A DNA stretch of 64,000 nucleotides from an uncultured Candidatus Saccharibacteria bacterium (GCA_964602975.1 CAZRTH010000001.1:70303-134302); one strand, 5' to 3'; shown: positions 7,082-57,901, counted from the stretch's first letter. A program made the numbers and translations. Notes: a model not told the origin generated them from the letters alone.

Positions 7082-7092
7082 TTGTCGTGTTA

Positions 7093-7995: not shown

Positions 7996-8115
7996 TGCGA
8001 TGTCTAGTATAACAAAATTAAGCCCAAATTACCTGCTCTACAAGGACCTCGGGTTACGTCCATTGTTTTTGTATCAACAGCAGCACTTTTTGCCTGCAGC
8101 ATTGAAGATCCGAGC

Positions 8116-12000: not shown

Positions 12001-15000
12001 AAGTCGGAGCTGGTGAAGCCGTGGCCTCGACGGGTGTTTGGGTGGTCTGAGCTGCCGGATCGGTCACCGAGAAGCTGAAGGTTACGGATGTCAGAGGAGT
12101 GCCTGCATCGTACATGAGTACGGTTAACCCCGCGTTATTGAAAAGTGGCGTGGCGCTAGTGGTGTCGATACGGAGAGTGGCAGTACAAGACGGGCTCGGA
12201 GTACAAGGTGCGTTCATGAACGAATACGTCGTGCCCGCAGGCATCGTGCTCCCCATCGTAAAGGTGACCGGCTTCCCCGCTCCGGTGCTCGTTTTTTGCA
12301 CAGCGATTGAAACATATGCAGGAGAACCTCTTGGTACGGTTACCGGACTGTTGGTGGTAGCTGAAATGGTGAATGATTCCGCTCCGTTGGCCGGAGCAGA
12401 GGCGACATGGAAATTGAAGAGAAGATCGGTGCTATTGGCGTTGCCTGCAGTATCGCTACAACGAACATAGTAGCTACGGTAGCTGCCGTTTGTCAGGCCG
12501 GTGAGCGTCGCAGAATGAGTTTTGCCGCCATTGCTCGCAGTGAGGGTCGAGGTCATAGCCGAGTATGGCGTACCGGATGGATTGGTGTAGGTTGTAGCGT
12601 ACTTGCAAGTAGCCGATTCATCAGTATCCAAAGAGATGAAGGTACTCGTTGTGCCGGCAGGAAGCTCGGTGAAGCTCGATGGTGGTAGCGGCGGCGTCAC
12701 TCGGGTGCGTACTGGCGGCATTCTGTCTACGCCAGCCAGAACCGTCACTTTCGCCACTTCGTACGCAAGAGTGGTTGGCCCCGTTCCCGCAGGCAGGTTT
12801 GTTAGATTGGTGAGAGAAAAACGATCTGGACCGTCATAAAAACCAGTCATCAGACGGTACTCTCCTGGCGGCAGAGTGTTGGTAGGAGTTTTAAAGGTAA
12901 ATGTTTCGGATCGATCACCGCCGGACCACGTTGAAGGATATTGTGAGAACGTCAGGTTCGGATAGCCCATGTCGTTGGACCCAATGACGAGAGAGTTGTC
13001 GGCATTGACGAGAAAACTGAACTGGTTCCAATTCTTCTCGGTCGGACCGCCACGATAATGGTAGGTGACAGTGAATATTTCCCCCTGTCTTGTAGTGATA
13101 GTAGCGGGTGTTGCCGGCAAAATGCTCACAGCCGTGACTTGGCGAGTCGGGCCCGAAGTCGGGCAAGCACCGAGTGCGCAGCCGCCGCTTGCAGGAGGAA
13201 CAACGGCTACCGTCACGTTTCCGCCGGTATTCGTGAGGTTCGCTTTTGCCAGAGCACCCTGGCTGGCATTGTAGTAGCTACCGCTACCGCTCGATTGCAG
13301 CCTCACCGCTCGGACCATGTAGCGTGAAAGTCCCGAAGAGACAGAAGGGTCAGTGAAGGTTGTCGCAGTGATCGGACTAGTCGTGAGACGAGCGAAAGCG
13401 CCATTTCCTAGAGCCCGATACACGTGATATCCGACAATACCGACATCAGGAGAAGCTGTCCAGCTTACATTGACTGAATTTACGCCGCCAGAGCTGAGCA
13501 CGATGCTTGTCGGAGGCAGAACAGTATGGAGGTGGAGCGTCGGATCACCCATGAGCGCTGCTGCCGACGCACGTTTGGTTCCACTGGCAGTCCATTTATA
13601 GAGAGGCGCATACGACTGTGCGGGATCGATGTTTTGTGACAATCGAGTGCTGTCTCCAAGCGTTTCACCGAGGCCCATGCGATAAAACTTCCAATTATAA
13701 AAACCTACCCAAGCGCTGCTCAAACCGTATGCCTGGTCGGCAATAAAAGAGCGCATGAGGTTATCGGAAAAATCCCAATCTCCAAAATAGCTGCCGAACA
13801 TCTGATTGAAAATGCCGGGGCTTTTGCCACTTGCTACGATATCATTGGTAGCGATTCCATTGTAAATACCAGCAGGATAGCCAGGGCCAGCGAAGCGAGT
13901 CCACAGGTTTCCATTTCCATCACCAAGAGAAGAACTAGAGAAGAAGCCGTTCTGTCCGAAAAAGGCGACGAAGTCCTTCCATGTGTCCTGCTCGTGCAAG
14001 AAAGCGAACAGATCGGAAGTGTAGCCAACACCTACTGTCGACATGCCTCCGACCCTAAAGAGATGGTCTTTGTTCAAATATTGGCGCAGAAGATCTTTCT
14101 CGTTCTTTGGCAAGAAAGCGGTCATGTTCGCGAAGTCGACTCGGCCAACTGCCAGCTCCACCTTTGAAGGAATCGTGTTCTGGTCGAATTTCCCGTCTCC
14201 CGGAAAATTGGCGGTTCTGGTGGGGATCGTCGGACAGACAAGTTCGACTGGGCATCGTGACGCACTAGATTGCGTATCGGTCCATGTTCCGTCTATGTCT
14301 CCATAGAAAACATCTGCCGGCCAAGCGCCATTATGATCATCGTGCCCGTCCGACGCCGCGAATCCTGAGTATGGCACCGGTACGTGGCCGAACAGGAACA
14401 CATGCGATGTTACTGCCGGATCCTCGAGATATTTTTGAGCAATGAGATTTCGTACAAGCGAAGGCGTGTCCGCCCTAGATACATCAAGCCGCACGACCGT
14501 CCAACCATCGCCCTCGAGGTCATCCTTCAGACGGTCCAACTCGAAAGAAAGGTCCGACGCGTATGTATTGTCCACTACCAAGACCACTCGGCCGCGACTA
14601 TCCACCAAAGGCGCTTTGTTGCCGGCCAGCACATAGGCTTCGTCGGTTCCCCCGCCATTGATCGTTTTGACCACGCGATACTCAAATACCGAACCGGGAC
14701 CGGCTGATGTGTCCAGATAGGTCAGGGGCGTTGGTCCAGAAATAGTACCGATGATCGAACCCCACGAGTCTGCGTTCTTTGCCTTTCGATATATATCGTA
14801 TTTTTGCGCGTTTGGATCGGCACTCCACTGCAGGAGGATGCCGGACGGACTTTCGTTCGCAGAAGCGCTCAACAGAACAGTGCTTGGCAGCACAGCATCA
14901 CCTGCGTTTGCCGTAGACGGTATGAAATATCCAGAGAGAAGCAGAAGACCGGCCACCACGACAGAACCAAAGAATGCCTTTGTTCTTTGAGCGGTTGGTA

Positions 15001-15004
15001 TCAT
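9083..15004 (-). CDS. giant secreted/cell-surface protein (1973 aa) with FN3-like modules, about seven alternating PKD-like repeats, Trp-rich GW..GW[IL].F repeats
   Basis: Signal peptide MIPTAQRTKAFFGSVVVAGLLLLSGYFIPSTANA; FN3-like segments; repeated ...TWS..ASGGDGTYTYSWTGTDGL... (PKD-like YxYxWxxxDG) alternating with ...PITWAAVPQGGDGTYSYSWSGSQSLAGFT...; GWAWSSTVGWLSF / GYVWAANIGWIKF / GYAWGSDVLGWVQF motifs. Confidence 0.85.
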   Translation of the reverse strand: MIPTAQRTKAFFGSVVVAGLLLLSGYFIPSTANAGDAVLPSTVLLSASANESPSGILLQWSADPNAQKYDIYRKAKNADSWGSIIGTISGPTPLTYLDTSAGPGSVFEYRVVKTINGGGTDEAYVLAGNKAPLVDSRGRVVLVVDNTYASDLSFELDRLKDDLEGDGWTVVRLDVSRADTPSLVRNLIAQKYLEDPAVTSHVFLFGHVPVPYSGFAASDGHDDHNGAWPADVFYGDIDGTWTDTQSSASRCPVELVCPTIPTRTANFPGDGKFDQNTIPSKVELAVGRVDFANMTAFLPKNEKDLLRQYLNKDHLFRVGGMSTVGVGYTSDLFAFLHEQDTWKDFVAFFGQNGFFSSSSLGDGNGNLWTRFAGPGYPAGIYNGIATNDIVASGKSPGIFNQMFGSYFGDWDFSDNLMRSFIADQAYGLSSAWVGFYNWKFYRMGLGETLGDSTRLSQNIDPAQSYAPLYKWTASGTKRASAAALMGDPTLHLHTVLPPTSIVLSSGGVNSVNVSWTASPDVGIVGYHVYRALGNGAFARLTTSPITATTFTDPSVSSGLSRYMVRAVRLQSSGSGSYYNASQGALAKANLTNTGGNVTVAVVPPASGGCALGACPTSGPTRQVTAVSILPATPATITTRQGEIFTVTYHYRGGPTEKNWNQFSFLVNADNSLVIGSNDMGYPNLTFSQYPSTWSGGDRSETFTFKTPTNTLPPGEYRLMTGFYDGPDRFSLTNLTNLPAGTGPTTLAYEVAKVTVLAGVDRMPPVRTRVTPPLPPSSFTELPAGTTSTFISLDTDESATCKYATTYTNPSGTPYSAMTSTLTASNGGKTHSATLTGLTNGSYRSYYVRCSDTAGNANSTDLLFNFHVASAPANGAESFTISATTNSPVTVPRGSPAYVSIAVQKTSTGAGKPVTFTMGSTMPAGTTYSFMNAPCTPSPSCTATLRIDTTSATPLFNNAGLTVLMYDAGTPLTSVTFSFSVTDPAAQTTQTPVEATASPAPTSEEVNPTPVDTNGYSTPGSTFAIPTALAGWAWSSTVGWLSFSSNNEAAPSGEYGVNRDIYGNLTGYVWAANIGWIKFGGLATDSMPSSTVAPGTVRQNARVDASTGRLSGWVRACGAASSPSTCSDAAGTTYTATNPDPRGGWGGWVSLSGITASGNYGVQLNSDSRYAGYAWGSDVLGWVQFDVPVPSNPDPELPDIAGSCISPTGAITGQVATWSATASGGTGTFTYSWSGSDSLASSGTSAPKVYSVAGIKFASVAISSGGRTLVVPCTNISVGTPPLPPLEVVVVASPPSARVGEPITWSAVPEGGDGSYEYSWSGSQSLAGFTPSATISYQTAGTMTATVEVISGGLLKTVSAQAVIQPAIVPPPPPEPPAPITATCTVPTNPIALQISTWSVSASGGDSTYTYSWTGTDGLNGGGTETSINYPTAGTKGATVTIFSGEQSLVKTCPDISVAPAPVTPPALNVDIVANPSTAYVGEPITWAAVPQGGDGTYSYSWSGSQSLAGFTQSATVAYSSAGQKSASVQVVSAGQTITVSSTANILTPPTPPPPVPAITASCTAPVGAQVDEIATWSTNPSGGDGTYTYSWTGSDGLNGGSRTAPIVYSTPGTKTASVTIYSGNQTLSVTCPNATVTAPPPPELQAAVTGSPATAYVNDAITWTVTVSGGTGTYAYSWSSDVSGTADRTTTSYASAGTKTGTMTVTSGAQQKTMSATVTILPVGGGGGTTYTPPPGGGASCIGVCETSSILGLTCNPPTKSTSPDGWTWTADITGSFKGNQPFRFNWTPSGASTVTHTGVSTPTDSFKIDGAMVGQFPTVSVADSSVAVNSSQLISCPAVPSEMVASDLEFGAVSIANTSAAAPSSPSVYKSSITTQKGRAAALRYSISGGNADDFYFISQSGTGGTSDVLSQQLYSTAISGNTIKVGPFNTEGTYRYALKVFSKGVSRATGTPKAVSEITVTVRTNPDLDEF
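9790..11650 (-). repeat. in-frame tandem DNA repeats (~267-bp period) encoding the PKD-like modules of the giant protein
   Basis: recurring blocks such as ccatgaatag gtgtaagtgccatcgccgcc at ~10236, ~10503, ~10770, ~11050; two alternating repeat subtypes. Confidence 0.8.
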
Positions 15005-20288: not shown

Positions 20289-20939
20289 ATGAAACCCTAT
20301 CATTTAAGCACTCGATTCTATATTATCTTCACCCTGGTGATGCTCGTGCCTGCAGTACTCGTGGCTGAGTATCTTCAGGAGGTCATCTTGGCGCCATTGT
20401 TCGACGTGCTGTTCACCAATCTGATCTTCGACTGGCGACTCATCGAAGCTCCGGTCGCGGCGAGCGTCATCGCCCTTTCTTTTTGGGTGTATGAAGTGTT
20501 TCTGTGGAGATTTCCGCCATTCAAACAACTCCATCCGTGCCCAGACGTAAACGGTCGGTATGAGGGAATTTATATAAGAAACAAGGATCAGGACCCAAAA
20601 AAAGAAAATGACATTGTCTTTGAGATCGAGCACACATTGAGGCACATTTCCGTGGTTTGTTACAGCGAGAAGCGAACCTCACACAGCCTGGTGGCGACCA
20701 TCGGCCAAAATGGGTTCGGTCACTGGTGGGTGTTGATGATCTATCAAAATATGGCGAATGAACACTTTGTCCATCACGGGACGCCGCACACTCATGGCGA
20801 ACGAGGCGTCGCTTTTATCGAGATCAGCAAAAAAGGCAAGGCATTGCACGGCACCTACTTCACCAACCCACAAGACACCGGCGTATATGGAACTTTCCAA
20901 GTGAAATTCAAGGGCGACAAGAAATTCTACGCGCTTTGA
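20289..20939 (+). CDS. hypothetical membrane protein: two N-terminal TM helices plus ~130-aa beta-rich, His-rich C-terminal domain
   Basis: 216 aa; TM1 ~res 10-30 (FYIIFTLVMLVPAVLVAEYL), TM2 ~res 55-76; C-terminal GHWWVLMIYQN...FVHHGTPHTHGERGVAFIEI...GTFQVKFKG. Confidence 0.55.
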   Translation: MKPYHLSTRFYIIFTLVMLVPAVLVAEYLQEVILAPLFDVLFTNLIFDWRLIEAPVAASVIALSFWVYEVFLWRFPPFKQLHPCPDVNGRYEGIYIRNKDQDPKKENDIVFEIEHTLRHISVVCYSEKRTSHSLVATIGQNGFGHWWVLMIYQNMANEHFVHHGTPHTHGERGVAFIEISKKGKALHGTYFTNPQDTGVYGTFQVKFKGDKKFYAL

Positions 20940-21057: not shown

Positions 21058-21981
21058 ATGTATATTCCCGACTACTTCCTTCCGATCAACAAGAGCGGCG
21101 CCATTCGGCTGCTCCTGCTTGGCCAGCGAGACAGGACGCCCGCAGTCATCCGTGCGTTCAATGAACGATACGTTTGGAGAGATCTGCCGGACGACGTGCA
21201 ACGAATGCATTTGGCCTGCAGCCGCTGGCACACCGCACAAACAGTATGCGTCGGCGAGTCGGCTACAGTGCTCCGCTTCCTCTGGTGGCACATGAACGAT
21301 ACCGGCATCCACAAAGGCTTGGAACGAGCCGGCACTTTGGTAAGCAGACGGGTGACCTTGAAACCGGAGATGCTGGGATGGCCGCTCGAGCAACTGATCG
21401 ACCCGGCTCACGTGCCTGAGCGCACCAGCCAGCTCGCAAGCGCCGCGATCCTGCATCACCCTGACCGACACCCTCGGCTGAAAGGAGTGCGTTTCCATAT
21501 CGACGCCACCTACGAAGCGCTCGATGATTGGAATGGCGGATACACTGATCCGGCAAAAGTTCCCGCGGTCGGGATCGACCCAACGATCAAACGACAAGCC
21601 GAAACCTTCTTGGCAATGCTACGAGGCGAGGCATCGTCCTATGAGCCCCAGCAGGTGGAAGACTTCCCGTTCTCATTCCTCGTCCGCGGGACGCCGACGA
21701 TCGCCGAAGCCGCCGAACGCTGGCCGAATTTGGCCGACCATGAGAGCAATCGCCTGAAAGCAGTCACGAATGCCTGCGAAGAATGGCGGGTGTCCAGAAC
21801 GATCAGTAGTTACGACCATCGGATCGTTCAGGCTACCGCCATGTATGCCATGATCCAGGGCTATTCGCCCCAAAGGCTCAAAGAATCCGTCGAGCACCCT
21901 GAAGTGGTTGCCAAGAGCTGGCCCCAGTTCTGGCGCTTTCTCCAGTTCGCCCACGGCCAAGTAGCCCAACGGCAGAGCTGA
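21058..21981 (+). CDS. hypothetical protein (307 aa) in locally GC-elevated segment
   Basis: longest ORF; antisense ORFs look spurious; no recognised motif; hairpin GCAGGC-tcac-GCCTGC at ~22013-22028 downstream. Confidence 0.45.
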   Translation: MYIPDYFLPINKSGAIRLLLLGQRDRTPAVIRAFNERYVWRDLPDDVQRMHLACSRWHTAQTVCVGESATVLRFLWWHMNDTGIHKGLERAGTLVSRRVTLKPEMLGWPLEQLIDPAHVPERTSQLASAAILHHPDRHPRLKGVRFHIDATYEALDDWNGGYTDPAKVPAVGIDPTIKRQAETFLAMLRGEASSYEPQQVEDFPFSFLVRGTPTIAEAAERWPNLADHESNRLKAVTNACEEWRVSRTISSYDHRIVQATAMYAMIQGYSPQRLKESVEHPEVVAKSWPQFWRFLQFAHGQVAQRQS

Positions 21982-23850: not shown

Positions 23851-24831
23851 TTATTTTAATGAAATGCCGTATTTATTCAAGAACTTCTTGATCTCCTGCA
23901 CGCCCTTGCTGCCAAGTCCGTCGATATCAAGAATATCCTCCTCCTTCTTTCGGACCAATCCTCCGAGGGTTCGGATGTTGGCGCTCGTGAGAGCATTGAG
24001 CGTTCGAGGTGACAGATCGAGAGTCTCGATTCGAGTCTTCAAAAGCTCTGGATCGATCTCTTTCTTTGAGGCCTTGTCGGAAGCTTCGTCTGCCTCGGCT
24101 GCCTTCATTGCCTTTTCCTCGGCTGGGACGATCTCCTCTTCCTTGAAGCCAACGATCGCCTTGAGCTGCTCGATCATGGTGACGATCGACTGCTCGAGAG
24201 CGGCGTGAGGAGTGATGGTGCCGTCAGTCTCAATGAAAAGCTTGATTCGGTTGAAGTCAGTACGATTGCCGACTCGCATGTTCTCTACTTCGTAGTTTGC
24301 GCGCTTGATCGGGGTGAAAATAGCGTCGAGAGCGATAGCGCCAATATCAACGCGCTCTTTCTGGATGATCTCCTTTGGCACGTAGCCAAGACCCTTCTGC
24401 GCGGTGAGCTCGATCTCCAAAGTGGTGTTCTTGTCGGTGACTGAAGCAATATGCTGATCCTTGTTGATGATGACAACCTGACCCGGAGCGTCGATATCGG
24501 CGCCGGTGGCATTCTTCACGCCCTTCACTCGGAGGTTAAGAGTCTGAGGCTCGTCGGTGAGGAGCTGGATGCGGAGCTTCTTGAGATTCAAAAGGATAGT
24601 GATCACGTCCTCCTTGACGCCTTCGATGGTTGAGAATTCATGTGACACGCCGGTGATCTTCACCGATGTCACCGCTGCGCCAGGGAGAGACGACAAAATG
24701 ATGCGTCGAAGAGAGTTGCCGAGAGTGTGGCCGTATCCTGGATAGAGTCCGTCGATCTCGTAGATGCCAACAGAACCATCTTCTTTGATGATGCGAGGCT
24801 TTGATGGGAGCACGATATTCTGATCAGTCAT
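23851..24831 (-). CDS. rpoA: DNA-directed RNA polymerase subunit alpha
   Basis: N-terminal domain (IEIDGLYPGYGHTLGNSLRRIILSSLPG) and C-terminal domain (LDLSPRTLNALTSANIRTLGGL); start set at MTDQNIV (ORF track runs 54 codons further upstream into rpsD). Confidence 0.93.
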   Translation of the reverse strand: MTDQNIVLPSKPRIIKEDGSVGIYEIDGLYPGYGHTLGNSLRRIILSSLPGAAVTSVKITGVSHEFSTIEGVKEDVITILLNLKKLRIQLLTDEPQTLNLRVKGVKNATGADIDAPGQVVIINKDQHIASVTDKNTTLEIELTAQKGLGYVPKEIIQKERVDIGAIALDAIFTPIKRANYEVENMRVGNRTDFNRIKLFIETDGTITPHAALEQSIVTMIEQLKAIVGFKEEEIVPAEEKAMKAAEADEASDKASKKEIDPELLKTRIETLDLSPRTLNALTSANIRTLGGLVRKKEEDILDIDGLGSKGVQEIKKFLNKYGISLK

Positions 24832-24862
24832 GTGATTGTTGTTATATAAAAATGATTGATAA

Positions 24863-25477
24863 TTATCGCTTGTAGAACTCCAGGATCGCGCCAATATCGA
24901 AAGGCGTCTCACCGGCAACAAACTTCGGCATTCCAACGATCTCGGCTCGTTTCTTCTCCGACTCGCTCTTGATCCAATTGACCGAGGGCGCATTCTTCAT
25001 CTTTTCGCTCGCCTGCTCGAACAGTTTTTTCTTCTGGCTGCCGTCGCGGAGAGTGAGCGCATCCTTCTCGGATACGGTGTATGAAGGAATGGTGCACTTC
25101 ACGCCGTTCACGAGGATGTGGCCGTGAGAGACCATCTGTCGAGCGAGGAGACGAGAGTTGGCCAAGCCAAGACGATACACGACGTTGTCGAGACGAGTTT
25201 CGAGAGCACGGAAGAGCGCCTCGTCTGGGTGGAGCTTGGTCTGAGCGATGGCCTTTCGGACATAGTTTCGAAACTGCTTCTCCATGACGCCGTAAGTGAA
25301 ACGCGCGCGCTGTTTCTCGATGAGCTGAGCGCCGAACTCGCTCTTTGGGCGAGGCTTTTTGCCATCCTTGCCGCCATTTCGGCGAGCTACAGACGCGGCA
25401 AACTTTGGCGTCTGTGTCTTATCGAAAACAGAAGCTCCTAGTCGTCGTGCAATCTTGTACTTTGGACCAATTTTCAT
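24863..25477 (-). CDS. rpsD: 30S ribosomal protein S4
   Basis: 204 aa; MKIGPKYKIARRLGASVF... S4 N-terminus, S4 RNA-binding domain. Confidence 0.93.
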   Translation of the reverse strand: MKIGPKYKIARRLGASVFDKTQTPKFAASVARRNGGKDGKKPRPKSEFGAQLIEKQRARFTYGVMEKQFRNYVRKAIAQTKLHPDEALFRALETRLDNVVYRLGLANSRLLARQMVSHGHILVNGVKCTIPSYTVSEKDALTLRDGSQKKKLFEQASEKMKNAPSVNWIKSESEKKRAEIVGMPKFVAGETPFDIGAILEFYKR

Positions 25478-26392: not shown

Positions 26393-26509
26393 TTAGCCTT
26401 GGCGCTGCTTGTGGCGCGGGTTGGATGCACACACCACATACACATAGCCCTTTCGTCGGACGGTCTTGCACTGAGCGCACACTTTTTTTACGGATGCTTT
26501 TACTCTCAT
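26393..26509 (-). CDS. rpmJ: 50S ribosomal protein L36 (38 aa; below the ORF-track length cutoff)
   Basis: hand translation [38 protein letters not shown] with C-x2-C-x12-C-x4-H zinc ribbon; lies between infA and rpsM as expected. Confidence 0.9.
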
Positions 26510-26515
26510 TGGTGT

Positions 26516-26731
26516 TTACAATCGTTTAGTAATACGCCCTTTGCCGCCATACGGGTCGATTTCTACTTTCACCTTATCGCCAATCAATACTCGGATATGA
26601 TTCATCCGCATTTTGCCTGCAAGGTACGCCATTATTTCTGTTTCCTGGCCTTCGAGCCTGACCTTAAACAAGGTGTTAGGAAGCGCCTCCGTGACGACTC
26701 CTAAAACGCCTGTATCTGGTTTCTTCTCCAT
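26516..26731 (-). CDS. infA: translation initiation factor IF-1
   Basis: 71 aa; ...[46 protein letters not shown]. Confidence 0.93.
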
Positions 26732-26805
26732 ATATAAATCCTGTAAAAACAGTGAATAGCATCATAACAAAAATAGGCCATAAAAGTCAAGCACCAGCCT
26801 GTGGA

Positions 26806-28050
26806 CTAGCCTTTTTGTTCGATGATCTGGATGCGGTCGACGTCATCTGGGAAGGTAGTTCGCCAAAAAGGACGGACCACTGCCTTGATCGGGGTGACTT
26901 CGCTAAAACCCGCCATGATCCCCTTGAATGAATCGGTTTTTTGGGATACCAGCGCCTCTTTGATCTTTGCAGTGTCGTAGAGCCAAACGAGACTAGCGGT
27001 ACCAGAGACACTGAGCTTGATCGGATCGCGATCAAAGACGCCCACCGACATGTTCTGCGGAACGACTTCGAGACCTTCGACCGTTTTGAGGTCCACTGGT
27101 TTTTCGTCGTATCCATTGAGCGATTTTGTGGCGATCGCTTTGGCAAGCATCTTTCGATCCAACATGAGACCGGTGAGGATCACCTTTTGGGTCAGCACCA
27201 CTGTATCAGTGTCTTTGTTTTGATTCGGCAACTGCTCCACACTAAACAATGTTGCTCTATCGAAAAATGCATACCCCTCGGGTGTCTGCGCTCGAGCGGA
27301 GGCGATGAGGCGTGTTTTGAGGTCAGCGATCATTGTGTCGCGTGCAGTCTTTTCATCAGCCACCTTCACCACTCGTACCACACCTTTGCTGCCGCCGGTC
27401 ATCGCGATTTTCGAGCGTGCATAGATATTTTTGTACTTTTCCGGAGTTGATTTGAAACCTGGGATAGTGAAGTCGGTGAGGCCTATGTTGTATTCCGGAC
27501 CAGCGACGTCAGCGTAAACTGTCACTTCGATACTGCCCGGTACGGTTCCCTTCTTTCCTGGAATAGTGACTGGCTCAGAAATTCGATAGATGAGACCTTC
27601 AGGAGTCTGAAATCGGGTGTTGCGGATGAGTCGCTGGGTGGCGGTGGTGTCGTTGTTGTAGATGACGATCTGTCCGGAGGCCTTCTTTTCCTCCATTCGG
27701 GTGCCTTGAGCAATGACTTCTTTTTGGGATTGGTCGGACAAGGTCACGAGCTGGTATGTAATATCCGTGCCCTTGGCTGTTTTACCGGCGAGCAGCGTAA
27801 TATTGACAGGCGTCTTCTGAGTGAGCGGATCAAGAGTGATCGTGGCTCCGGTAAAGAGCGAGGACACAACGAAAAATAGGACGGCGAGGCAGGCGACTAC
27901 CAGCGTCCAAAGGATACTGCGGCGAATCTTCAGCTGAGGGTCGCTGCCGGCATCACCAGAGCGATCTGATCGACCGCGCATTGAAGCCGGAATGATCCGT
28001 ATACTACGGCGCTCCGAAGGGCGCACATCATTGATAATAGGCCTCGACAT
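26806..28050 (-). CDS. hypothetical bitopic membrane protein (414 aa; Arg-rich cytoplasmic N-terminus, one TM, large extracytoplasmic domain)
   Basis: TM ~res 46-66 (ILWTLVVACLAVLFFVVSSLF); no recognised motifs. Confidence 0.6.
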   Translation of the reverse strand: MSRPIINDVRPSERRSIRIIPASMRGRSDRSGDAGSDPQLKIRRSILWTLVVACLAVLFFVVSSLFTGATITLDPLTQKTPVNITLLAGKTAKGTDITYQLVTLSDQSQKEVIAQGTRMEEKKASGQIVIYNNDTTATQRLIRNTRFQTPEGLIYRISEPVTIPGKKGTVPGSIEVTVYADVAGPEYNIGLTDFTIPGFKSTPEKYKNIYARSKIAMTGGSKGVVRVVKVADEKTARDTMIADLKTRLIASARAQTPEGYAFFDRATLFSVEQLPNQNKDTDTVVLTQKVILTGLMLDRKMLAKAIATKSLNGYDEKPVDLKTVEGLEVVPQNMSVGVFDRDPIKLSVSGTASLVWLYDTAKIKEALVSQKTDSFKGIMAGFSEVTPIKAVVRPFWRTTFPDDVDRIQIIEQKG

Positions 28051-28079
28051 GCCGGTAGTATATCAAAGATTTCGCAATA

Positions 28080-29372
28080 CTATTGCTTTAGCTTGTTGAT
28101 AAACAGGACGGTGAGTAGCAAATTTACGGAGTGTACCTCAGGTGCATTCATTTGGTAGTGGGTGTTGAGGAAATTGCAATCGAGTGCCAACACCGAAAAA
28201 GGCGTGCCGTCAGAAGCTCCGTGTCCGAGCGAGTGATCGGAGATGAGTGTCGCAAAAAATGGCTGAAGGCGATCTTCAGCCGCCACCATCACAGTGCCAG
28301 GCACGAAGCATTCTTCAGAAAGGAGGGCGATCGAACCGGACACGGATGCTTGCCAATCTTTTGAAGCTTTTTTGAGTACTGGCTCAACTCGTTTTTTAGT
28401 CTCATCGGAAAGTGAATCAAGGCCGTGCATGCCAAGGACCGAGAGAGCTGTCTCTGGCGAGATCCCGGCTTCTTTTTCTAGCGCCCGTACAAAATGCTGG
28501 CTGCCCATCGGCACCGTGATCGTCTGCATCGCCACACCCTTCTTCACAATAGTGAAATCCGACACCTCGCCGTCCACGTCCACCAGCAAAAAATGCCGTG
28601 GAACCGACGCCACATCTCGAACTACGGAAAAAGTGACCATCGGGAAGGTGTGAAAATTGATAGTGGATCGACGGAAAATAGGCTGAACCACCTCTCGGAT
28701 CTGTGCGAGCAATTCCGAACCGACCACGCTGAAGTAGAGAGCGACTTCGAGCTCCTTCATTTTTTTGCCCTTTGGCCGCGAGGTTTCGTAGCCGTTCAGA
28801 GACAAAGAGACGACGTGACTTTCCACCAATTCCAGCTGCTCATGAAAACGCTCGCCGTATTCGCTGGCAGCAAAAGCATCGGCAAAAGCATTCGCTTCCT
28901 TTTTCACCAATTCATCAAGCGCCTTTTCAGAAAATAGTTCCGGAGTGTCCTTCACCTCACGGACGATCTTTGTCTGCGACAAAAACCACGGCGAAGCGAG
29001 CGTACAGTGGATCTCCCCGACCGCATCACTGCGCAATCCTCCCAGCGGAGTGAAGGTGAGATGTTGCAAACCTTCTTTTTCGAGGCGATCAACCACTTTT
29101 TTCAGCACTGTGATCGCAGCCGCTGCCATGTCCTTCCCAGGCTTGGCAGTACGATGTAGGGGAAATGTTTCTTCGCAAGAAAAGAGGATTTTCGGAACGC
29201 GGCATGTCGCGCCGGCTGTTGCCGTATTAGCCAATGTCCCCAATGCGTCGGACGCAGGCTTGGTCTCAGAACAATCGCGAATAGCGAGACCGCCAGACAC
29301 TCGCTCACCTTCAATGTGAAGAAGGATGACGGGTACTTTATCTGAATGCATGCCAAACGAGAGCCGGCTCAT
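28080..29372 (-). CDS. actin-fold (ASKHA) ATPase-like protein, FtsA/PilM-like (tentative)
   Basis: 430 aa; phosphate-1-like VILLHIEGERVSGGLAI near N-terminus and phosphate-2-like LLVDVDGEVSDFTIVKKG mid-protein; hydrophobic/basic C-terminal tail LLLTVLFINKLKQ. Confidence 0.5.
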   Translation of the reverse strand: MSRLSFGMHSDKVPVILLHIEGERVSGGLAIRDCSETKPASDALGTLANTATAGATCRVPKILFSCEETFPLHRTAKPGKDMAAAAITVLKKVVDRLEKEGLQHLTFTPLGGLRSDAVGEIHCTLASPWFLSQTKIVREVKDTPELFSEKALDELVKKEANAFADAFAASEYGERFHEQLELVESHVVSLSLNGYETSRPKGKKMKELEVALYFSVVGSELLAQIREVVQPIFRRSTINFHTFPMVTFSVVRDVASVPRHFLLVDVDGEVSDFTIVKKGVAMQTITVPMGSQHFVRALEKEAGISPETALSVLGMHGLDSLSDETKKRVEPVLKKASKDWQASVSGSIALLSEECFVPGTVMVAAEDRLQPFFATLISDHSLGHGASDGTPFSVLALDCNFLNTHYQMNAPEVHSVNLLLTVLFINKLKQ

Positions 29373-29411
29373 GGGAATATTGTATCACGAATCAGAGGCG
29401 AGCTAGCAAGA

Positions 29412-30080
29412 TCAGATCGTCCAGTTGTCCTTTGCAATCGCGCGGAGCAAAAATACTCCGTCGACCTCATCGAAGACGAGATACATCGTGGTCCAATCCA
29501 TTCCCTCGTACTGCGGGTTAAAGCCGGAATAGTGGAAAGCAACCAATTCCCGAGAACCCTTGTCAGTAAGAAGGCTGTTCTGGCTATTCCCGCTGCCCAA
29601 GGTCTTGTTCACTGCAGTGTCCGGAGCTGCCAGATAGTCGGCAGTGTTGATATATTTTTTCAAATAGTCGGCAACGGTCATATTGATCTCGTCACCCTTC
29701 CCATCAGTGTAACCGAAAAAGTGGAGCGTTTTGTCTGTGGTAATTTCCGAAACATTTTCTTTGGAGAGCGTGCTGCTCGCTAGGTTTAGATTCGGCACAT
29801 GGCGCAGAGAGAGACCATCGGGACTCACAAGCGTTTCAAGTTTGGCAAAGTCGGAAGAAGCGAGCGCTTCCAGCACCTTCTTCGACGCCGCAAAGAGACG
29901 AGCCTCTTTTTGTAGCTGCGCCTGCTGCTGCCGCTCGAGGGTCTGGCCAATTTGTTGGCCCTGATTTTGGCCGTTATTAGTAGAACCTTTTCGGCTCTGG
30001 ACAAACAGGTATCCGCTGAGCGCGATCGACGCGAAGAGAATGACGGCCACAAAGATACGAACGGCATATGAAGTCTTCAT
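29412..30080 (-). CDS. hypothetical bitopic membrane protein (~222 aa from MKTSYAV; ORF track extends to 30203)
   Basis: N-terminal TM (VRIFVAVILFASIALSGYLFV), Q-rich linker, globular C-terminal domain; TATAAT at 30092-30087 six nt before this ATG. Confidence 0.55.
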   Translation of the reverse strand: MKTSYAVRIFVAVILFASIALSGYLFVQSRKGSTNNGQNQGQQIGQTLERQQQAQLQKEARLFAASKKVLEALASSDFAKLETLVSPDGLSLRHVPNLNLASSTLSKENVSEITTDKTLHFFGYTDGKGDEINMTVADYLKKYINTADYLAAPDTAVNKTLGSGNSQNSLLTDKGSRELVAFHYSGFNPQYEGMDWTTMYLVFDEVDGVFLLRAIAKDNWTI

Positions 30081-30177
30081 GGAGTAATTATATACTTTTC
30101 TAGACAAAATAAGGAGAAGACGTATACTAAAAATGGATCCGTAATAAAACAACCGCTCACCAACGTAGATCAGAACT

Positions 30178-30624
30178 ATGAAAACTTGTTCCAAAAACGT
30201 CATCGACGAGCAACTCGAAGGACTGCTCGGTCATACAAATCCGACCTTTCTCTCGCAGCACGAATCAACCGTGGTCTCGTTCGAGAAATTGGTCTTACCC
30301 AAGCAGATCGAGGTCATGCAACTCATGGCCGAGCATATTCAGGCTCCCAATAGCGAGGTGACGCCGGAGTTGCTCGACAGGCTGATCCAAAAGTTAAATG
30401 TCGGTCGAGTAGAAGTCGCGGCAGTGCTTCCATTACTTCGACCGTTGCCGCACGAGACAAAACAGGCCGTAGCTGCAACCAACGCTGTCATCGCCATCGT
30501 CATTGAATCTGACTGTGAACTTCGTGCCATCCGCGAGTTTCAAAGGCAACAAGAGGAGCATCAGTATGCTCAACCAACGCCGGCCAGATCTCGTTACGAT
30601 CCGAAAATGCGCCGACTGCCGTAA
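30178..30624 (+). CDS. hypothetical protein (148 aa)
   Basis: ORF with coding-like codon bias; terminator hairpin downstream. Confidence 0.4.
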   Translation: MKTCSKNVIDEQLEGLLGHTNPTFLSQHESTVVSFEKLVLPKQIEVMQLMAEHIQAPNSEVTPELLDRLIQKLNVGRVEVAAVLPLLRPLPHETKQAVAATNAVIAIVIESDCELRAIREFQRQQEEHQYAQPTPARSRYDPKMRRLP

Positions 30625-30665
30625 CTCCTAGCACCTTATAAAAAATATCTTCGGAACAGATCGAG

Positions 30666-30690
30666 CCACCCTAACCCGGTGGTCTTTTTA
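30666..30690 (+). terminator. rho-independent terminator candidate CCACC-ctaaccc-GGTGG-TCTTTTTATT between convergent genes
   Basis: 5-bp GC stem plus T-run after stop of 30178-30624; alaS ends 27 nt away on other strand. Confidence 0.45.
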
Positions 30691-30716: not shown

Positions 30717-32600
30717 CTAGCCCAGCACCGCCTTGATGCGTCGCACGCCGGCAGATACCGCCTCTTCTTTGGTGATCTTGAATTTCCAAACTCCGGCCGG
30801 ACCGGCGAGCTCCTTGGTGTTCTTCACGTGAGGGCCACCACAGAATTCTTTTGAGTAGGCGGTGCGCACAGCGTCGGCGACAGAAGCCGCACCGGTACCG
30901 TCTGCCTCACCACCAATATAATAGACGGTCACCTTGTCGCCGTATTTGTCGCCAAAGAAATGCAGCGCACCCAGTTTTTCCGCTTCAGCCTTCGGGAGTT
31001 CAGCGACCTGCATCGGCAGCGCTGCCGCGATCTTTTCATTCACGATCGCCTCCACGCGCTTTTTCTCATCATCGGTCATCTTGGCACCGTGAGCAAAGTC
31101 AAAGCGAAGACGTTCAGCGGTGATGTTGCTTCCCTTCTGCTGCACCTGCGTGCCGAGCACATCTCGCAACGCCTGATGGAGCAGGTGCGTGGCGGTGTGA
31201 TATTTCACTGACATCTCATCGGTGTCGGCGAGACCACCCTTGAACTTCTGCGCTGCGCCAGCACGAGAAAGCTCTTGATGGGCTTTCATTTTTGCTTCAA
31301 ATTCTGCGATATCTACTTTTTTGCCAGATTCCTTGGCCAACTCAACCGTCAATTCTAGAGGAAAACCGTATGATGAAAAAAGTGTGAAGGCATCGGTACC
31401 CTTTTCAAATTCCTTCAGACCGTTTTTGAGCGTCTCGCGAAACTTACTTTCCTCTTTGTCGATCTCTTTCTTGATATGTTCCGCTTTCTCGAGAAGATTT
31501 CCGTACACTGGACCAAACTTTTCGATCACCGCACCGGCGATCCAGAAAAGCGAGCCAGGCTTCATGCCGAGCAAGTCGGCAAAGCGCACTACTCGCCTGA
31601 GCAAGCGGCGCAGAATATATCCTTGATCAGTGTTCGAAGGCAGAACACCATCGCTGATGAGAAATACTGCTGTGCGAAGGTGATCCGCGACAATTCTTTT
31701 TGCTCGCATATTATCTGCCGTCGAGAATTCATCGATCTTCCCCATGATCGTATCAAAGAGATCCGTATCAAAAACACTCTGCACTTTCGGGTTCTCCAAT
31801 CGCTGCAGCACCATACAGAGGCGCTCGAGGCCGGCGCCGGTATCAACATTCTTCTGCGCGAGCTTGCCGACGATCTTGCCCTCGCGTTTCTCAAACTCCA
31901 TGAACACATCGTTCCAGATCTCCACCACCTGTTGCTTCTCATCGGCCTCGTTGTATTGCTCGATGGTCAGATCGCCGAGACCTTTTTCGGTCACGTCATA
32001 GAACATCTCAGAGCACGGGCCGGTCGGGCCGGTCCAGCCGTCGCGCGTCTCGCCGCTCGCGGTCTTCTTCACTGCGGGCCACCAGTTGGAATCAGCGCCT
32101 TTGAAATAGATGCGATGCTCAGGCATGCCCACTTTCTTCCAGATCTCAAATGCCTCAGTGTCGCGCGGCACACCCGCCTTCTCATCGCCTTCAAACACGG
32201 TCACATAGAGACGGGCCGGATCGAGACCGAGTCCCTCTGTCTTGCTTGTGAGGAATTCGTAGCTCCACTTGATCGCGTCCTCCTTGAAATATCCGCCGAC
32301 TGACTCATCTCCGAGCGACCAGTTGCCGAGCATTTCAAAGAAGGTGCAGTGAGTGCTATCGCCGACCTCGTCGATGTCGATGGTGCGCACGCATTTCTGC
32401 GAGTCGGCTAGGCGCACACCGGATGGATGTTTGCCGCCCATTAGGTACGGCACAAGCGGCTGCATGCCCGCGGTGTTGAAGAGCGTTGTGTTGGTCGCAC
32501 TTGTCTCACTATTTGCGAGCAACGAATACGACGGGATGATGACATGACCCCTCTTCTCGAAGAATCTGAGGAATCGGCTACGAATGTCGTGAGATTTCAT
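30717..32600 (-). CDS. alaS: alanine--tRNA ligase, truncated form lacking C-Ala domain
   Basis: 627 aa; catalytic N-terminus ...FFEKRGH..., editing domain HTATHLLHQALR...CGGPHV; ends right after editing domain. Confidence 0.9.
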   Translation of the reverse strand: MKSHDIRSRFLRFFEKRGHVIIPSYSLLANSETSATNTTLFNTAGMQPLVPYLMGGKHPSGVRLADSQKCVRTIDIDEVGDSTHCTFFEMLGNWSLGDESVGGYFKEDAIKWSYEFLTSKTEGLGLDPARLYVTVFEGDEKAGVPRDTEAFEIWKKVGMPEHRIYFKGADSNWWPAVKKTASGETRDGWTGPTGPCSEMFYDVTEKGLGDLTIEQYNEADEKQQVVEIWNDVFMEFEKREGKIVGKLAQKNVDTGAGLERLCMVLQRLENPKVQSVFDTDLFDTIMGKIDEFSTADNMRAKRIVADHLRTAVFLISDGVLPSNTDQGYILRRLLRRVVRFADLLGMKPGSLFWIAGAVIEKFGPVYGNLLEKAEHIKKEIDKEESKFRETLKNGLKEFEKGTDAFTLFSSYGFPLELTVELAKESGKKVDIAEFEAKMKAHQELSRAGAAQKFKGGLADTDEMSVKYHTATHLLHQALRDVLGTQVQQKGSNITAERLRFDFAHGAKMTDDEKKRVEAIVNEKIAAALPMQVAELPKAEAEKLGALHFFGDKYGDKVTVYYIGGEADGTGAASVADAVRTAYSKEFCGGPHVKNTKELAGPAGVWKFKITKEEAVSAGVRRIKAVLG

Positions 32601-41794: not shown

Positions 41795-44764
41795 TTATCC
41801 CGCCACGACCACGCTCACCAACTTCCCTTTTACGACGATAACTTTCTTCACTGGCTTGCCTGCGATCCACTTCTGCACTTCCAGCAAGGCCAGGGCAAGC
41901 TTCTCCAAGTCAGCATCCGTCGCGTCGCTCGGCGCGGCAAATTCCGCTCGCACCTTGCCATTCACCTGCACGCCGATCTTACGGCTGGCTTCGCGGATTT
42001 TCGCCTCGTCGCAGACCGGCCAGGCGGATAGATGGATACTTGTTTTGTTGCCAAGCTGTGCCCAAAGTTCTTCTGACATATGAGGTGCAAAAGGTGCGAG
42101 CAGTTTCAAGAACGTTTCATATTGTTCCCGGGACACGCCGGCAGCTTGCTCGTCCAGCGCATTGAGCAAGATCATCATTGTGCTGATCGCGGTGTTGAAT
42201 TTCATTTCCGCGATGTCCGCCCCAACTTTTTTAACAGTCTTGTGTAGCAAGGACTCCAATTCACTAGTCGGGACAGCGACAGAAGTGGAAGCGGGGGCGG
42301 AAGTGGCGGTCACCTTCCCTGCCAGTTTCCACACGCGCTCCAAGAAGCGACGTGAGCCGATCATGCTGTTGGTGTTCCACGCGATCTGTTGATCGAACGG
42401 ACCCATGAACATTTCATATACACGCAAAGTGTCGGCACCATACGTAGCAATGATCTCGTCCGGATTCACGACATTCCCCCAACGCTTCGACATCTTTCTG
42501 CCATCTTCGGCCATGATGAGTCCGACATGCTGGAGCTTTTTAAATGGCTCGGTGGTTGAGACGACACGAATGTCGTAGAGGAATTTGTGCCAGAAGCGAG
42601 CGTAGATCAGGTGGCGTGTCGCGTGCTCTGCCCCACCGACATAGAGATCAACCGGTGCCCAATACTGCTCCGCTCGAGGATCGACAAGCGCCTTTTTGTT
42701 GCGCGCGTCCATGTATCGCAAGTAGTACCAGCTTGAACCCGCCCATTGCGGCATGGTGTTGGTCTCGCGACGAGACTTGCCACGACACTTCGGACACTTG
42801 GTGTTCACCCACTTTTCGATCGCAGCCAAAGGCGACTCACCAGTGCCAGTTGGCTCGTATGACTTCACCTTCGGGAGTTTCACTGGCAGGTCTTTTTCGG
42901 GAACAGGTACAACCCCGCACTTCTCGCAATGCACCACAGGGATCGGCTCGCCCCAATATCGCTGACGTGAGAACACCCAATCGCGGAGGCGGTAGGTTGT
43001 TTTCTTGGTGGCAAGATTCTTCGACTCGAGATAAGCAATGATCTCATTTCGCACGCCGCGCGCGTTTTTACCGGCAAATTCTTTCGGCTCGGACAGAATA
43101 CCTGTTTGAGCATCGGCAAAACATATTTCCTGTTTACGCACCTTTTCAGCAAGCGCTTCGTCCTTCGGATACAAAACTGTCTTGAGTGTGATCCCGTATT
43201 TCTTGGCGAAAGCAAAGTCGCGCGGGTCGTGCGCAGAACACTTCACGATACCGGTACCGTAGTCGGCCAAAGCAAAGCTCGCAACCCAGATCGGCAGATC
43301 GCCATTTCCAAGCGGATCGACGATGTAGCGGCCAGTAAAAATACCTTCAGATTCTTTTTCTTCAGCAAATCCCTGCTGCGCGCGCTTTGCAACCAAGCCA
43401 GCAGAGAAGTCGAGAACCTTCTGTTTGTCCTTTGTTCCCTCGAGCAAGGTTGACAGAAACGGATGATCCGGAGCGATGACGACAAATGTGTCGGCATAGC
43501 ACGCCTCGAAGTGTGCGGAGAATGTCTGGATGGTGAGGCTTGTATCTTTCACAGGTGCAGTGAAGATCATGCCGTCGCTCTTACCGATCCAATTCCGCTG
43601 AAGCTCTTTAATAGAGGTCGGCCAATCGAGCGCGGGCCGTCCAGCCTTCGCCTTGCCGATGAAAACATCCCAGAGATAATTCATGTCCGGACGATTCAAA
43701 AAACCGGCAACCTCCGCACGCGGCAGCCAGACCACTTCGTGAAGTGCCTTCTCCTTTTCATCAGCATCTTTCCACGCGTCATCCACGAGCTCGAGATACA
43801 CGCCGGTGAAATGCGCGAAGCGATTCACTTTTTTGATCGCCTGATAAAATTGGGAGTCGATCTGACCGAATTCGCGGACAAACCGGACATTCTGATAGCC
43901 AGTCTCCTCTTGCACTTCGCGCATCGCCGCCTCAGCGAGTTGTTCGCCTTTTTCTACGCCGCCAACTACAAGACCATGCCAATCATTACTCTTCCAACGC
44001 AGACACAAATACTTGTCTTCAGACCAATGCTTCACGACGCACACGACGGCATTTCGCTCCTCTAGCGGCAGGCCGGGGCGCACTGCGTCGGGGCCAGAAT
44101 CACGGATCATGAGGGGCTTTTCTGTCGCATCCAGATCAGCCAGCAGTCGCTCGGCATAATCAGTGATCTTCAAGACCCACTGACGGATGGGCTTTTTCTC
44201 CACGACGCTACCACAGCGTTCGCACTTGCCATCCTCGAGATCCTCGTTGGCAAGACCGGTCTTGCAGGAAGGACACCAGTTGATCGGCTCGTGCGATTGA
44301 TACGCTAGACCTTTCTCGAGCAATTTCAGGAAGATCCATTGCGTCCACTTGTAGTAGGCGGGGTCGGTGGTGTTGATCTCTCGCGACCTGTCATAGTCGA
44401 AGCCGAACATCTCGAGCTGCTCCTTGTAGCGCTGAACGTTCTTCTCCACAGCGATCGCCGGATTGGTCTTCATCTTGATCGCGTAGTTTTCTGCTGGAAG
44501 GCCGAAAGCGTCAAAACCCATCGGGTGCAGCACCGAATGACCTTGCATGCGCTTCATACGCGACACAACATCGGTAGCGATGTAGCCCTTCGGGTGACCG
44601 ACATGGAGACCTTCACCGGATGGATACGGGAACATGTCGAGGACGTAGAAGGCGTCTTTCTTCGCATCCTCCTTGGTCGCGTAGATCTTTTTCTTCGCCC
44701 ACTGCTTCTGCCACTTGTTCTCTATCTTCGAGTGATCGTATGCGGGCAGTTTCTGCGATTTCAT
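41795..44764 (-). CDS. leuS: leucine--tRNA ligase with an inserted Nudix hydrolase domain
   Basis: 989 aa; HIGH-type motif PYPSGEGLHVGHP, ZN-1 CPSCKTG..CERCG, CP1 editing domain, KMSKS region; Nudix box GGVEKGEQLAEAAMREVQEETGY at res ~268-290. Confidence 0.95.
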   Translation of the reverse strand: MKSQKLPAYDHSKIENKWQKQWAKKKIYATKEDAKKDAFYVLDMFPYPSGEGLHVGHPKGYIATDVVSRMKRMQGHSVLHPMGFDAFGLPAENYAIKMKTNPAIAVEKNVQRYKEQLEMFGFDYDRSREINTTDPAYYKWTQWIFLKLLEKGLAYQSHEPINWCPSCKTGLANEDLEDGKCERCGSVVEKKPIRQWVLKITDYAERLLADLDATEKPLMIRDSGPDAVRPGLPLEERNAVVCVVKHWSEDKYLCLRWKSNDWHGLVVGGVEKGEQLAEAAMREVQEETGYQNVRFVREFGQIDSQFYQAIKKVNRFAHFTGVYLELVDDAWKDADEKEKALHEVVWLPRAEVAGFLNRPDMNYLWDVFIGKAKAGRPALDWPTSIKELQRNWIGKSDGMIFTAPVKDTSLTIQTFSAHFEACYADTFVVIAPDHPFLSTLLEGTKDKQKVLDFSAGLVAKRAQQGFAEEKESEGIFTGRYIVDPLGNGDLPIWVASFALADYGTGIVKCSAHDPRDFAFAKKYGITLKTVLYPKDEALAEKVRKQEICFADAQTGILSEPKEFAGKNARGVRNEIIAYLESKNLATKKTTYRLRDWVFSRQRYWGEPIPVVHCEKCGVVPVPEKDLPVKLPKVKSYEPTGTGESPLAAIEKWVNTKCPKCRGKSRRETNTMPQWAGSSWYYLRYMDARNKKALVDPRAEQYWAPVDLYVGGAEHATRHLIYARFWHKFLYDIRVVSTTEPFKKLQHVGLIMAEDGRKMSKRWGNVVNPDEIIATYGADTLRVYEMFMGPFDQQIAWNTNSMIGSRRFLERVWKLAGKVTATSAPASTSVAVPTSELESLLHKTVKKVGADIAEMKFNTAISTMMILLNALDEQAAGVSREQYETFLKLLAPFAPHMSEELWAQLGNKTSIHLSAWPVCDEAKIREASRKIGVQVNGKVRAEFAAPSDATDADLEKLALALLEVQKWIAGKPVKKVIVVKGKLVSVVVAG

Positions 44765-55998: not shown

Positions 55999-56021
55999 AA
56001 AAATCCGCTCGTGCGGATTTT
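55999..56021 (-). terminator. rho-independent terminator after tRNA-Ala (AAAATCCGC-acga-GCGGATTTTT)
   Basis: 9-bp stem then U-run on minus strand, directly 3' of the tRNA. Confidence 0.6.
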
Positions 56022-56025
56022 GTTG

Positions 56026-56098
56026 TGGACCCTACAGGACTCGAACCTGCCACCCCCTCATTGCAAATGAGGTGCTCTACCAGATGAGCTAAGGGCCC
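56026..56098 (-). tRNA. tRNA-Ala (anticodon UGC)
   Basis: hand-folded cloverleaf: GGGCCCT/AGGGTCC acceptor with G3:U70 Ala identity pair, D-loop ATCTGGTA, anticodon loop TTTGCAA, T-loop TTCGAGT, discriminator A; CCA not encoded. Confidence 0.88.
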
Positions 56099-56218
56099 GT
56101 CTTTCCGACCGTCGCATCATACCAAAAAGAACCTAAAAAAACAACGGGGTAGACACTAAAGTAATATTCACAGAAATCATGTACAAAAAGCTAATAAAGT
56201 TGTATGGTGGAGACATAA

Positions 56219-57187: not shown

Positions 57188-57191
57188 CCCA

Positions 57192-57223
57192 CTCCCCCTC
57201 GCCAATTCTACCAAACGTTCAAC
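57192..57223. repeat. 32-bp direct repeat copy A: fragment duplicating the 3' end of ddl
   Basis: CTCCCCCTCGCCAATTCTACCAAACGTTCAAC vs 58389-58420 CTCCCCCTCGCCAATTCCACCAAATGCTCAAC (29/32). Confidence 0.8.
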
Positions 57224-57896: not shown

Positions 57897-57901
57897 AGGT
57901 A

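Follow-up and report, generated by a model that had tools for sequence, protein, structure and literature searches.

The closest described counterparts of the gene pair reported here couple an actin-fold protein to a bitopic membrane protein. In PilM and FtsA, subdomain 1C of the actin-fold protein is the partner-binding surface. The N-terminal peptide of PilN is the tether in the PilM/PilN system, and the same logic is found in fused form in GspL of type II secretion. FtsA binds the cytoplasmic N-terminal peptide of the bitopic protein FtsN through 1C, and in MreB-RodZ an actin-fold protein is likewise coupled to a bitopic protein that joins cytoplasm and envelope. We analyzed a 64,000-nucleotide stretch of DNA (the window) catalogued under an uncultured Candidatus Saccharibacteria bacterium (GCA_964602975.1 CAZRTH010000001.1:70303-134302). 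All positions are counted in this window, and the main locus lies on its minus strand. Just ahead of infA, two adjacent genes encode a 430-residue actin-like protein (28080-29372, minus strand) and a 414-residue bitopic membrane partner (26806-28050, minus strand). These two genes are a conserved module found widely among Paceibacteria-type Patescibacteria (Parcubacteria/OD1). Annotations list both proteins as hypothetical, Pfam and NCBIfam have no dedicated family for either, and a search of the literature for Patescibacteria proteins resembling FtsA/PilM or baseplate J turned up no paper on the pair. The window organism belongs to the Patescibacteria (candidate phyla radiation, CPR), of Parcubacteria/Paceibacteria type. 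The nearest homologues come from metagenome-assembled genomes labeled as Patescibacteria group, Kaiserbacteria, Taylorbacteria, Zambryskibacteria and Campbellbacteria.

The pair was followed in a species scan using one genome per species, in which 80 loci with as much as 10 kb of flanking sequence were analyzed. Where 87 related loci are cited below, these are the loci covered by the searches for a third gene and for FtsZ. Complete genomes with the pair include CP011215.1 (Campbellbacteria; locus L074, a DIGS-type pair) and OZ244961.1. The partner occurs in at least 527 species-level genomes, and its 1033 homologues all come from Patescibacteria-type records. The family profile of the actin-like protein finds 3301 cluster representatives. 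In every testable locus (72 of 72), the actin-like gene is directly upstream of the partner gene on the same strand, with a median gap of 47 bp from stop to start (62 loci). The surroundings are less constant. The genes infA-rpmJ-rpsM-rpsK-rpsD lie directly downstream of the partner in 60 of 73 loci, and alaS lies within 700 bp upstream of the pair in 47 of 62. One clade (loci L019, L020, L034, L043, L046, L048, L055, L057 and L069) keeps alaS and the pair but has other genes in place of infA downstream, namely a conserved protein of about 205 residues (MFTKEEL...), one of about 192 residues and a tRNA-synthetase-like gene. The link between the pair and the alpha operon has therefore been broken at least once with the pair intact. 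Since adjacency is constant and the downstream genes vary, conservation attaches to the pair itself, whose association with the alpha operon is frequent without being obligatory. An earlier note on this DNA had placed the locus beside core translation genes, and that placement holds well beyond the window, the pair being deeply conserved next to infA and the alpha operon in a large Patescibacteria lineage.

The open reading frame (ORF) for the 430-residue protein was modeled with AlphaFold2 from 14 homologues, giving a mean predicted local distance difference test score (pLDDT) of 81 and a predicted template modeling score of 0.80. When this model was compared with PDB structures by Foldseek, FtsA from T. 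maritima, S. aureus, Vibrio and E. coli was matched at E values of 2e-18 to 3e-13 and TMq of about 0.6. The best match was T. maritima FtsA (E 2e-18, TMq 0.61), and the top 12 matches were FtsA throughout (E 2e-18 to 3e-15, about 445 aligned columns). PilM was the second class, at 1e-14 to 3e-11, while Ppx/GppA, EutJ, ParM and MreB appeared at 1e-8 or weaker. In E value, some 6 to 10 orders of magnitude thus separate FtsA and PilM from every other actin-fold class. The model also contains a large insert at about residues 110-230, between the first helix of subdomain 1A and the next 1A strand. This is the position of 1C in FtsA and PilM, and as in FtsA the insertion is in 1A and not in 1B. Nearly half of the invariant residues of the family (SPW, QT, LNGY, P200 and S215) fall within this 1C-like insert, at residues 120-230. 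A confident model, the Foldseek ranking and an insert in the 1C position together indicate that the 430-residue protein is, as modeled, an actin-fold protein of the FtsA/PilM class. The earlier note had called it an actin-like (ASKHA) protein, and in this it was right. At the level of sequence, the family profile searched against PDB sequences matched PilM at 1e-5 and FtsA at 2e-3, and in those alignments the phosphate-1 and phosphate-2 regions align as expected.

The nucleotide site is less well preserved than the fold. The two strings that the earlier note quoted for the phosphate motifs, VILLHIEGERVSGGLAI and LLVDVDGEVSDFTIVKKG, are found in the window, and the motifs were compared across 82 members of the family. 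The phosphate-2 motif VDVDGEVSD (28557-28583, minus strand) is conserved, with the family pattern D-[IV]-x-G-E-[VI]-[TS]-[DE], and the profile comparison with PDB pairs it with the phosphate-2 region of M. xanthus PilM. The phosphate-1 motif is degenerate in the window, reading HIEGERV (29298-29318, minus strand) where the family consensus is DIGSxSV. Of the 76 members that have a residue at the key column, 62 have Asp and 7 have His; the full HIEGERV string is limited to the window protein and its closest relative. At the adenosine position the window has VMVAAEDR and the family FLTADxD, and the Gly-Gly of FtsA is absent from both. Of the phosphate-1, phosphate-2 and adenosine motifs of ASKHA proteins, therefore, only phosphate-2 is kept in the window protein. 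The protein had been described as an ATPase with both phosphate motifs. With Asp replaced by His in phosphate-1, the ATPase label is doubtful in the window clade, and the motif columns leave it uncertain across the family. The same replacement suggests that in the window clade (HIEGE), the protein is probably a nucleotide-independent or non-hydrolyzing scaffold.

FtsA reaches the membrane through a C-terminal linker and amphipathic helix, and the earlier note had likened the hydrophobic/basic C-terminal tail of the 430-residue protein to that helix. Neither the sequence nor the model of the 430-residue protein has a linker followed by such a helix. The C-terminal helix VHSVNLLLTVLFINKLKQ (28083-28136, minus strand) is modeled at residues 416-429, contiguous with the core and without a linker, at pLDDT 76-81. 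Its hydrophobic moment is 0.12 in the window protein and 0.17 in the family consensus, as against about 0.57 for the membrane-targeting helix of E. coli FtsA. The helix carries conserved Asp/Glu in the family consensus, and family members terminate at the same profile position. In the model, then, it is probably the closing core helix of subdomain 1A. A helix that is contiguous with the core and has a low hydrophobic moment argues that the protein lacks a membrane anchor of its own.

The partner could supply that anchor. It is better conserved than the actin-like protein, at 35-40% versus 22-29% identity at comparable evolutionary distance. Its AlphaFold2 model has a mean pLDDT of 84, with residues 1-41 disordered (pLDDT below 50). 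Near the start of that disordered stretch, alignments reveal a short conserved peptide, NDVRPSERRSIRIIP (27988-28032, minus strand; family pattern QD[IV]xPPx[RK]RSIR[ND]IP), whose S/T-[IVM]-[RK] core is kept by 65 of the 73 sequences with a complete N-terminus. The peptide is followed by a variable Arg/Lys-rich linker, a single transmembrane helix and the ectodomain, and it is the sole conserved cytoplasmic element of the protein. The transmembrane helix ILWTLVVACLAVLFFVVSSLF (27853-27915, minus strand) is evident in the sequence, directly after the Arg/Lys-rich segment, and appears as a helix at 44-65 in the model. The positive-inside rule would place the N-terminus inside and the large domain outside. 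The earlier note had given both genes flanking the actin homologue this architecture of a cytoplasmic N-terminus, one transmembrane helix and a large outside domain. It fits the 414-residue partner and does not fit the protein encoded upstream, for reasons given below.

The ectodomain, about 348 residues long (26809-27852, minus strand), consists of a baseplate-J/GlxA-like beta-barrel with further alpha/beta domains and contains many invariant residues. The Pfam GlxA barrel (PF21110) is matched by 23 of 37 family members, one of which is named 'GlxA-like beta barrel domain-containing protein' in UniProt. Baseplate_J (PF04865) is matched by 2 of 37 at E of about 0.006, and the window partner itself has no match to it. 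Foldseek searches of PDB with the partner model returned phage baseplate wedge/J proteins at 2e-7 and weaker and GlxA at 1e-6, and searches of BFVD returned baseplate-J-like proteins. The J-like barrel is assigned with a Foldseek probability of 1.0, and the barrel superposes at a root-mean-square deviation of 4-6 A over about 120-135 columns. A J-like beta-barrel is therefore common to the partner, to baseplate J of the Mu gp47/T4 gp6 class and to Streptomyces GlxA. Unlike baseplate J, the partner is membrane-anchored and would be extracytoplasmic, shows no sequence similarity to phage proteins, has no tail or baseplate neighbors and superposes poorly as a whole chain. The partner had been likened to FtsQ/DivIB or PilN/PilO, and this likeness is not supported. 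There is no Pfam or NCBIfam match to POTRA/FtsQ or PilN/PilO domains and none among the top 50 Foldseek matches in PDB; the ectodomain matches the baseplate-J/GlxA barrel folds instead.

As in PilM-PilN, the locus encodes a cytoplasmic FtsA-like protein that has a 1C subdomain but no anchor, and directly downstream of it a bitopic protein carrying a short conserved peptide at its extreme N-terminus. It resembles FtsA in its subdomain topology, FtsA being the best structural match, and in that FtsA, too, takes hold of a bitopic protein by such a peptide. It differs from MreB-RodZ, since MreB-type structures match far worse (E about 1e-6) and RodZ binds by a helix-turn-helix domain and not by a short peptide. 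The lack of an anchor, the invariant residues gathered in the 1C-like insert and the adjacent bitopic partner with its N-terminal peptide follow PilM-PilN and FtsA-FtsN logic, from which we infer a peptide tether. The partner peptide would dock onto the actin-like protein as PilN does on PilM and FtsN on FtsA. Docking would tether the actin-like protein to the membrane, and the actin-like protein might in turn cluster or order the partner ectodomains in the cell envelope, where the ectodomain is possibly oligomeric like baseplate J. The resulting trans-membrane scaffold would have a housekeeping envelope role in growth, division or surface assembly. We give about an even chance to this reading of the pair as a PilM/PilN-style tethered trans-membrane scaffold with a housekeeping envelope role.

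Several points weigh against that reading. The binding of the peptide to the actin-like protein, the oligomerization and the envelope function are each something we infer by analogy. A simple covariation test detected no signal linking loss of the partner SIR motif (8 of 73 pairs) to conserved columns in the actin-like protein. The neighbors alaS and infA offer no functional clue. The partner ectodomain resembles its structural matches in fold alone, the barrel being the one part that superposes well and whole-chain TM-scores being about 0.2. The ectodomain had no tblastn match in 50,697 phage records. The family consensus of the actin-like protein is without the adenosine GG, and nucleotide binding is uncertain family-wide as judged from the motif. 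Finally, co-occurrence of canonical FtsA and PilM with the pair is likely, and it draws on literature for other Parcubacteria. A more ambitious version can be put forward only tentatively. The pair might be a trans-envelope machine specific to Paceibacteria-type Patescibacteria, with a scaffold of the FtsA/PilM class that is additional to MreB, FtsA and PilM and is tethered by the peptide, and with an ectodomain descended from, or sharing ancestry with, phage baseplate wedge protein J. The ectodomains might then form ordered assemblies in the envelope, indispensable to these ultra-small episymbionts in growth, division or attachment to hosts.

Among the other explanations, the one that survives best, though we think it unlikely, is that the actin-like protein is the true FtsA of the lineage, a Z-ring tether relocated beside the alpha operon, with an FtsN- or FtsQ-type divisome protein as its partner. 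FtsA is the best structural match, as described above, and 19-20 of 43 family members have weak matches to the FtsA hidden Markov models (HMMs) PF14450 and TIGR01174, with best family-wide E values of 4.9e-7 and 1.3e-7, respectively. Some members also weakly match MPN316, the ftsZ-adjacent FtsA-like protein of Mycoplasma. The window protein, however, falls short of the Pfam FtsA model PF14450 (16.3 bits against a cut-off of 31.8; E 0.013) and has no match to TIGR01174. It has neither the membrane-targeting tail nor the adenosine Gly-Gly of FtsA, and its phosphate-1 motif is degenerate, as it is in its clade. The partner model matches no FtsQ, FtsN or POTRA fold in its top 50. Nor is the pair near ftsZ or a dcw cluster; the FtsZ signature GGGTG[ST]G is absent from the window and from the 87 related loci, within flanks of at most 10 kb. 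A relaxed search with the family profile likewise found no ftsA or pilM nearby in any of the loci collected, within the same flanks. Published Parcubacteria genomes carry a separate, canonical ftsA, which adjoins ftsZ in 15 of 17 of them (PMC4508563 Table S1). The same table, which omits genes upstream of infA and alaS, lists mreB in 16 of 17 and pilM in 17 of 17, and ftsA, pilM and mreB are all at loci distinct from infA (PMC4508563 Table S1).

That last count also bears on a second explanation, which we regard as improbable, that the pair serves as an alignment subcomplex of PilM/PilN type, for a type IV pilus or a competence pseudopilus, and is encoded apart from the other pilus genes. The PilM/PilN logic is just that of a bitopic partner encoded downstream and bearing a conserved N-terminal peptide, and PilM ranks second among the structural classes and first among the matches of the sequence profile in PDB. 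But Parcubacteria already have pilM in a pilus operon in all 17 genomes (PMC4508563), and the window protein scores 14.6 bits against TIGR01175 (pilM), where the cut-off is 133. Only 3 of 43 family members match that model at E below 0.01. The partner, at about 420 residues, is about twice as long as PilN, and its ectodomain has the baseplate-J/GlxA-like barrel where PilN and PilO have a ferredoxin-like domain, with no match to either. There is no PilO-like third gene. The peptide differs as well, reading QDIxPPxRRSIRxIP where that of PilN is INLLP. In most of the 80 loci the immediate context is alaS, pair and infA and not a type IV pilus cluster, and the window ORFs that were scanned contained no pilus domains.

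It is very improbable that the pair is a remnant of a prophage or of a contractile injection system, or that the actin-fold protein works as an enzyme (for example, a phosphatase of Ppx/GppA type or a kinase) and not as a scaffold. The partner does match baseplate-J folds, and 7 of 43 family members of the actin-like protein weakly match Ppx-GppA. The order of housekeeping genes, however, is fixed over 72 species-level loci with no phage genes and no tail cluster, the phage records gave no match, PADLOC gave none either, and Ppx/GppA structures match 10 orders of magnitude worse than FtsA. Least probable of all is the proposal that the three co-directional genes of the window, separated by gaps of 39 and 29 bp, are one lineage-specific module of two bitopic proteins flanking an actin homologue, since none of the 87 related loci contains a homologue of the first gene, its 33 homologues elsewhere are not near the pair, and it came together with an opposite-strand ORF as an insertion.

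The gene in question was read in the earlier note as encoding 263 residues (29412-30203). The 222-residue form starting MKTSYAV..., from an ATG at 30080, has an exact match in a public protein collection, and a TATAAT-like box lies just upstream of that ATG. To judge from these sequence features, the ORF almost certainly begins at 30080 and encodes a 222-residue signal-anchored protein (29412-30080, minus strand). Only six residues then precede the hydrophobic segment, and the cytoplasmic N-terminal domain that had been ascribed to the protein disappears. In the closest relative of the window (65-77% protein identity), alaS directly abuts the actin-like gene. The 222-residue protein belongs to a small family, some members of which are fused to extra domains, and its homologues adjoin ileS/recO, ABC-F/sigma or gyrB. 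Divergent from it is a 148-residue ORF without matches (orf148; 30178-30624, plus strand). From the comparison of loci, the 222-residue gene and orf148 make up about 1.3 kb of DNA inserted, in the window only, between alaS and the actin-like gene. Between alaS and orf148 there is also a G+C-rich hairpin flanked on either side by T-runs (30665-30683). We also considered whether a third gene recurs between alaS and the actin-like gene, and rejected it because the inserts in other loci share no content. PADLOC, run on orf148 and the three proteins, detected no defense system. The earlier note had held that its module would fail if the three genes were not conserved and canonical ftsA or pilM were present. 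The trio is indeed not conserved, and published Parcubacteria carry both canonical genes, yet the pair is strongly conserved.

The position of the pair had also been read as that of secY, adk and map, replaced in the ribosomal operon. Among the large window ORFs scanned, none had a SecY, adenylate kinase or Met-aminopeptidase domain. The upstream neighbor of the pair is alaS and not the spc operon, and the pair is outside any intact S10-spc-alpha cluster. In published Parcubacteria, secY is inside the S10-spc cluster, far from infA (PMC4508563 Table S1). The pair has not replaced secY, adk and map but occupies a place in a conserved order of alaS, pair and alpha operon, in a lineage whose alpha operon is detached from S10-spc.

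In the window, the full order on the minus strand is alaS (30717-32600), the 222-residue gene, the actin-like gene, the partner gene, infA (26516-26731), rpmJ (26393-26509), rpsM, rpsK, rpsD, rpoA, rplQ, rplM and rpsI. Gene identities were established by matches to Pfam-annotated relatives and by phmmer. The three minus-strand ORFs of the earlier note and the run from infA to rplQ downstream of them are real. Window ORFs other than those scanned for domains are matched by synteny to dnaJ, dnaK, grpE, mnmA, yceG, DUF8128 and rpoD. The three ORFs and infA are co-directional, with 39 bp between the upstream ORF and the actin-like gene, 29 bp between the latter and the partner gene, and 74 bp between the partner gene and infA, which follows directly. 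This last spacer contains weak hairpins and a promoter-like site found by a consensus scan, TTGACT-18-TATGAT with TG (26761-26790, minus strand), although such sites are no commoner in the real than in the shuffled sequence. By this weak indication, infA may be driven by its own promoter. Tight embedding of the pair in the operon, as the earlier note had it, is therefore unestablished at the transcript level.

Two of the flanking genes deserve comment. AlaRS, encoded directly upstream of the insertion (30717-32600, minus strand), has 627 residues, and its relatives have 621-644. A typical bacterial AlaRS has about 870 residues, and the difference suggests that the C-terminal domain has been lost. 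The rpoA ORF as called (23851-24993, minus strand) encodes 380 residues and overlaps the end of rpsD by 131 bp. In relatives rpoA encodes 320-325 residues, so the true start in the window is probably an internal Met.

A few other features of the window and its relatives were observed in passing. The leucyl-tRNA synthetase (989 residues; 41795-44764, minus strand) has a NUDIX hydrolase domain inserted in its body at residues 240-352, and a related genome (L088 2254-5949) encodes a 1231-residue IleRS with an inserted His_Phos_1 phosphatase. Enzyme domains inserted in class I synthetases may be recurrent in these genomes. A 216-residue protein (20289-20939, plus strand) is a full-length match to CBASS 2TM/Cap15 effectors (PADLOC E 7e-26; Pfam Cap15 receptor domain), and the next gene encodes a 307-residue protein with no family match (21058-21981, plus strand). 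This two-gene cassette, with grpE on one side and the GIY-YIG/rpsI genes on the other, is missing from a close relative. It may be a minimal CBASS-type defense insertion with an unrecognized cyclase. A 1973-residue protein (9083-15004, minus strand) has matches to SprB repeats and fibronectin-III. Giant surface or adhesin proteins of this kind are reported for Parcubacteria. Lastly, two stretches, 6001-8000 and 56001-58000, have a low G+C content of 0.42-0.43 compared with about 0.52 elsewhere. The first includes genes for a 7TM histidine kinase and a methyltransferase. The second adjoins a tRNA-Ala (56025-56098) and has ORFs with a cEGF-like match or none. Both may be horizontally acquired islands.

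The Patescibacteria represent a large share of bacterial diversity and are almost wholly uncultured, and the genes retained in their tiny genomes are thought to be mostly indispensable. The pair sits in a block of housekeeping genes and is annotated only as 'hypothetical' or 'GlxA-like barrel domain-containing', which makes it a strong candidate for a core, lineage-specific envelope function. It will hold no conceptual surprise until a function is shown. What it adds is a new FtsA/PilM branch that seemingly keeps the logic of an N-terminal-peptide tether with a wholly different outside domain. The pair is thus a concrete and testable entry point to envelope organization in the Patescibacteria.

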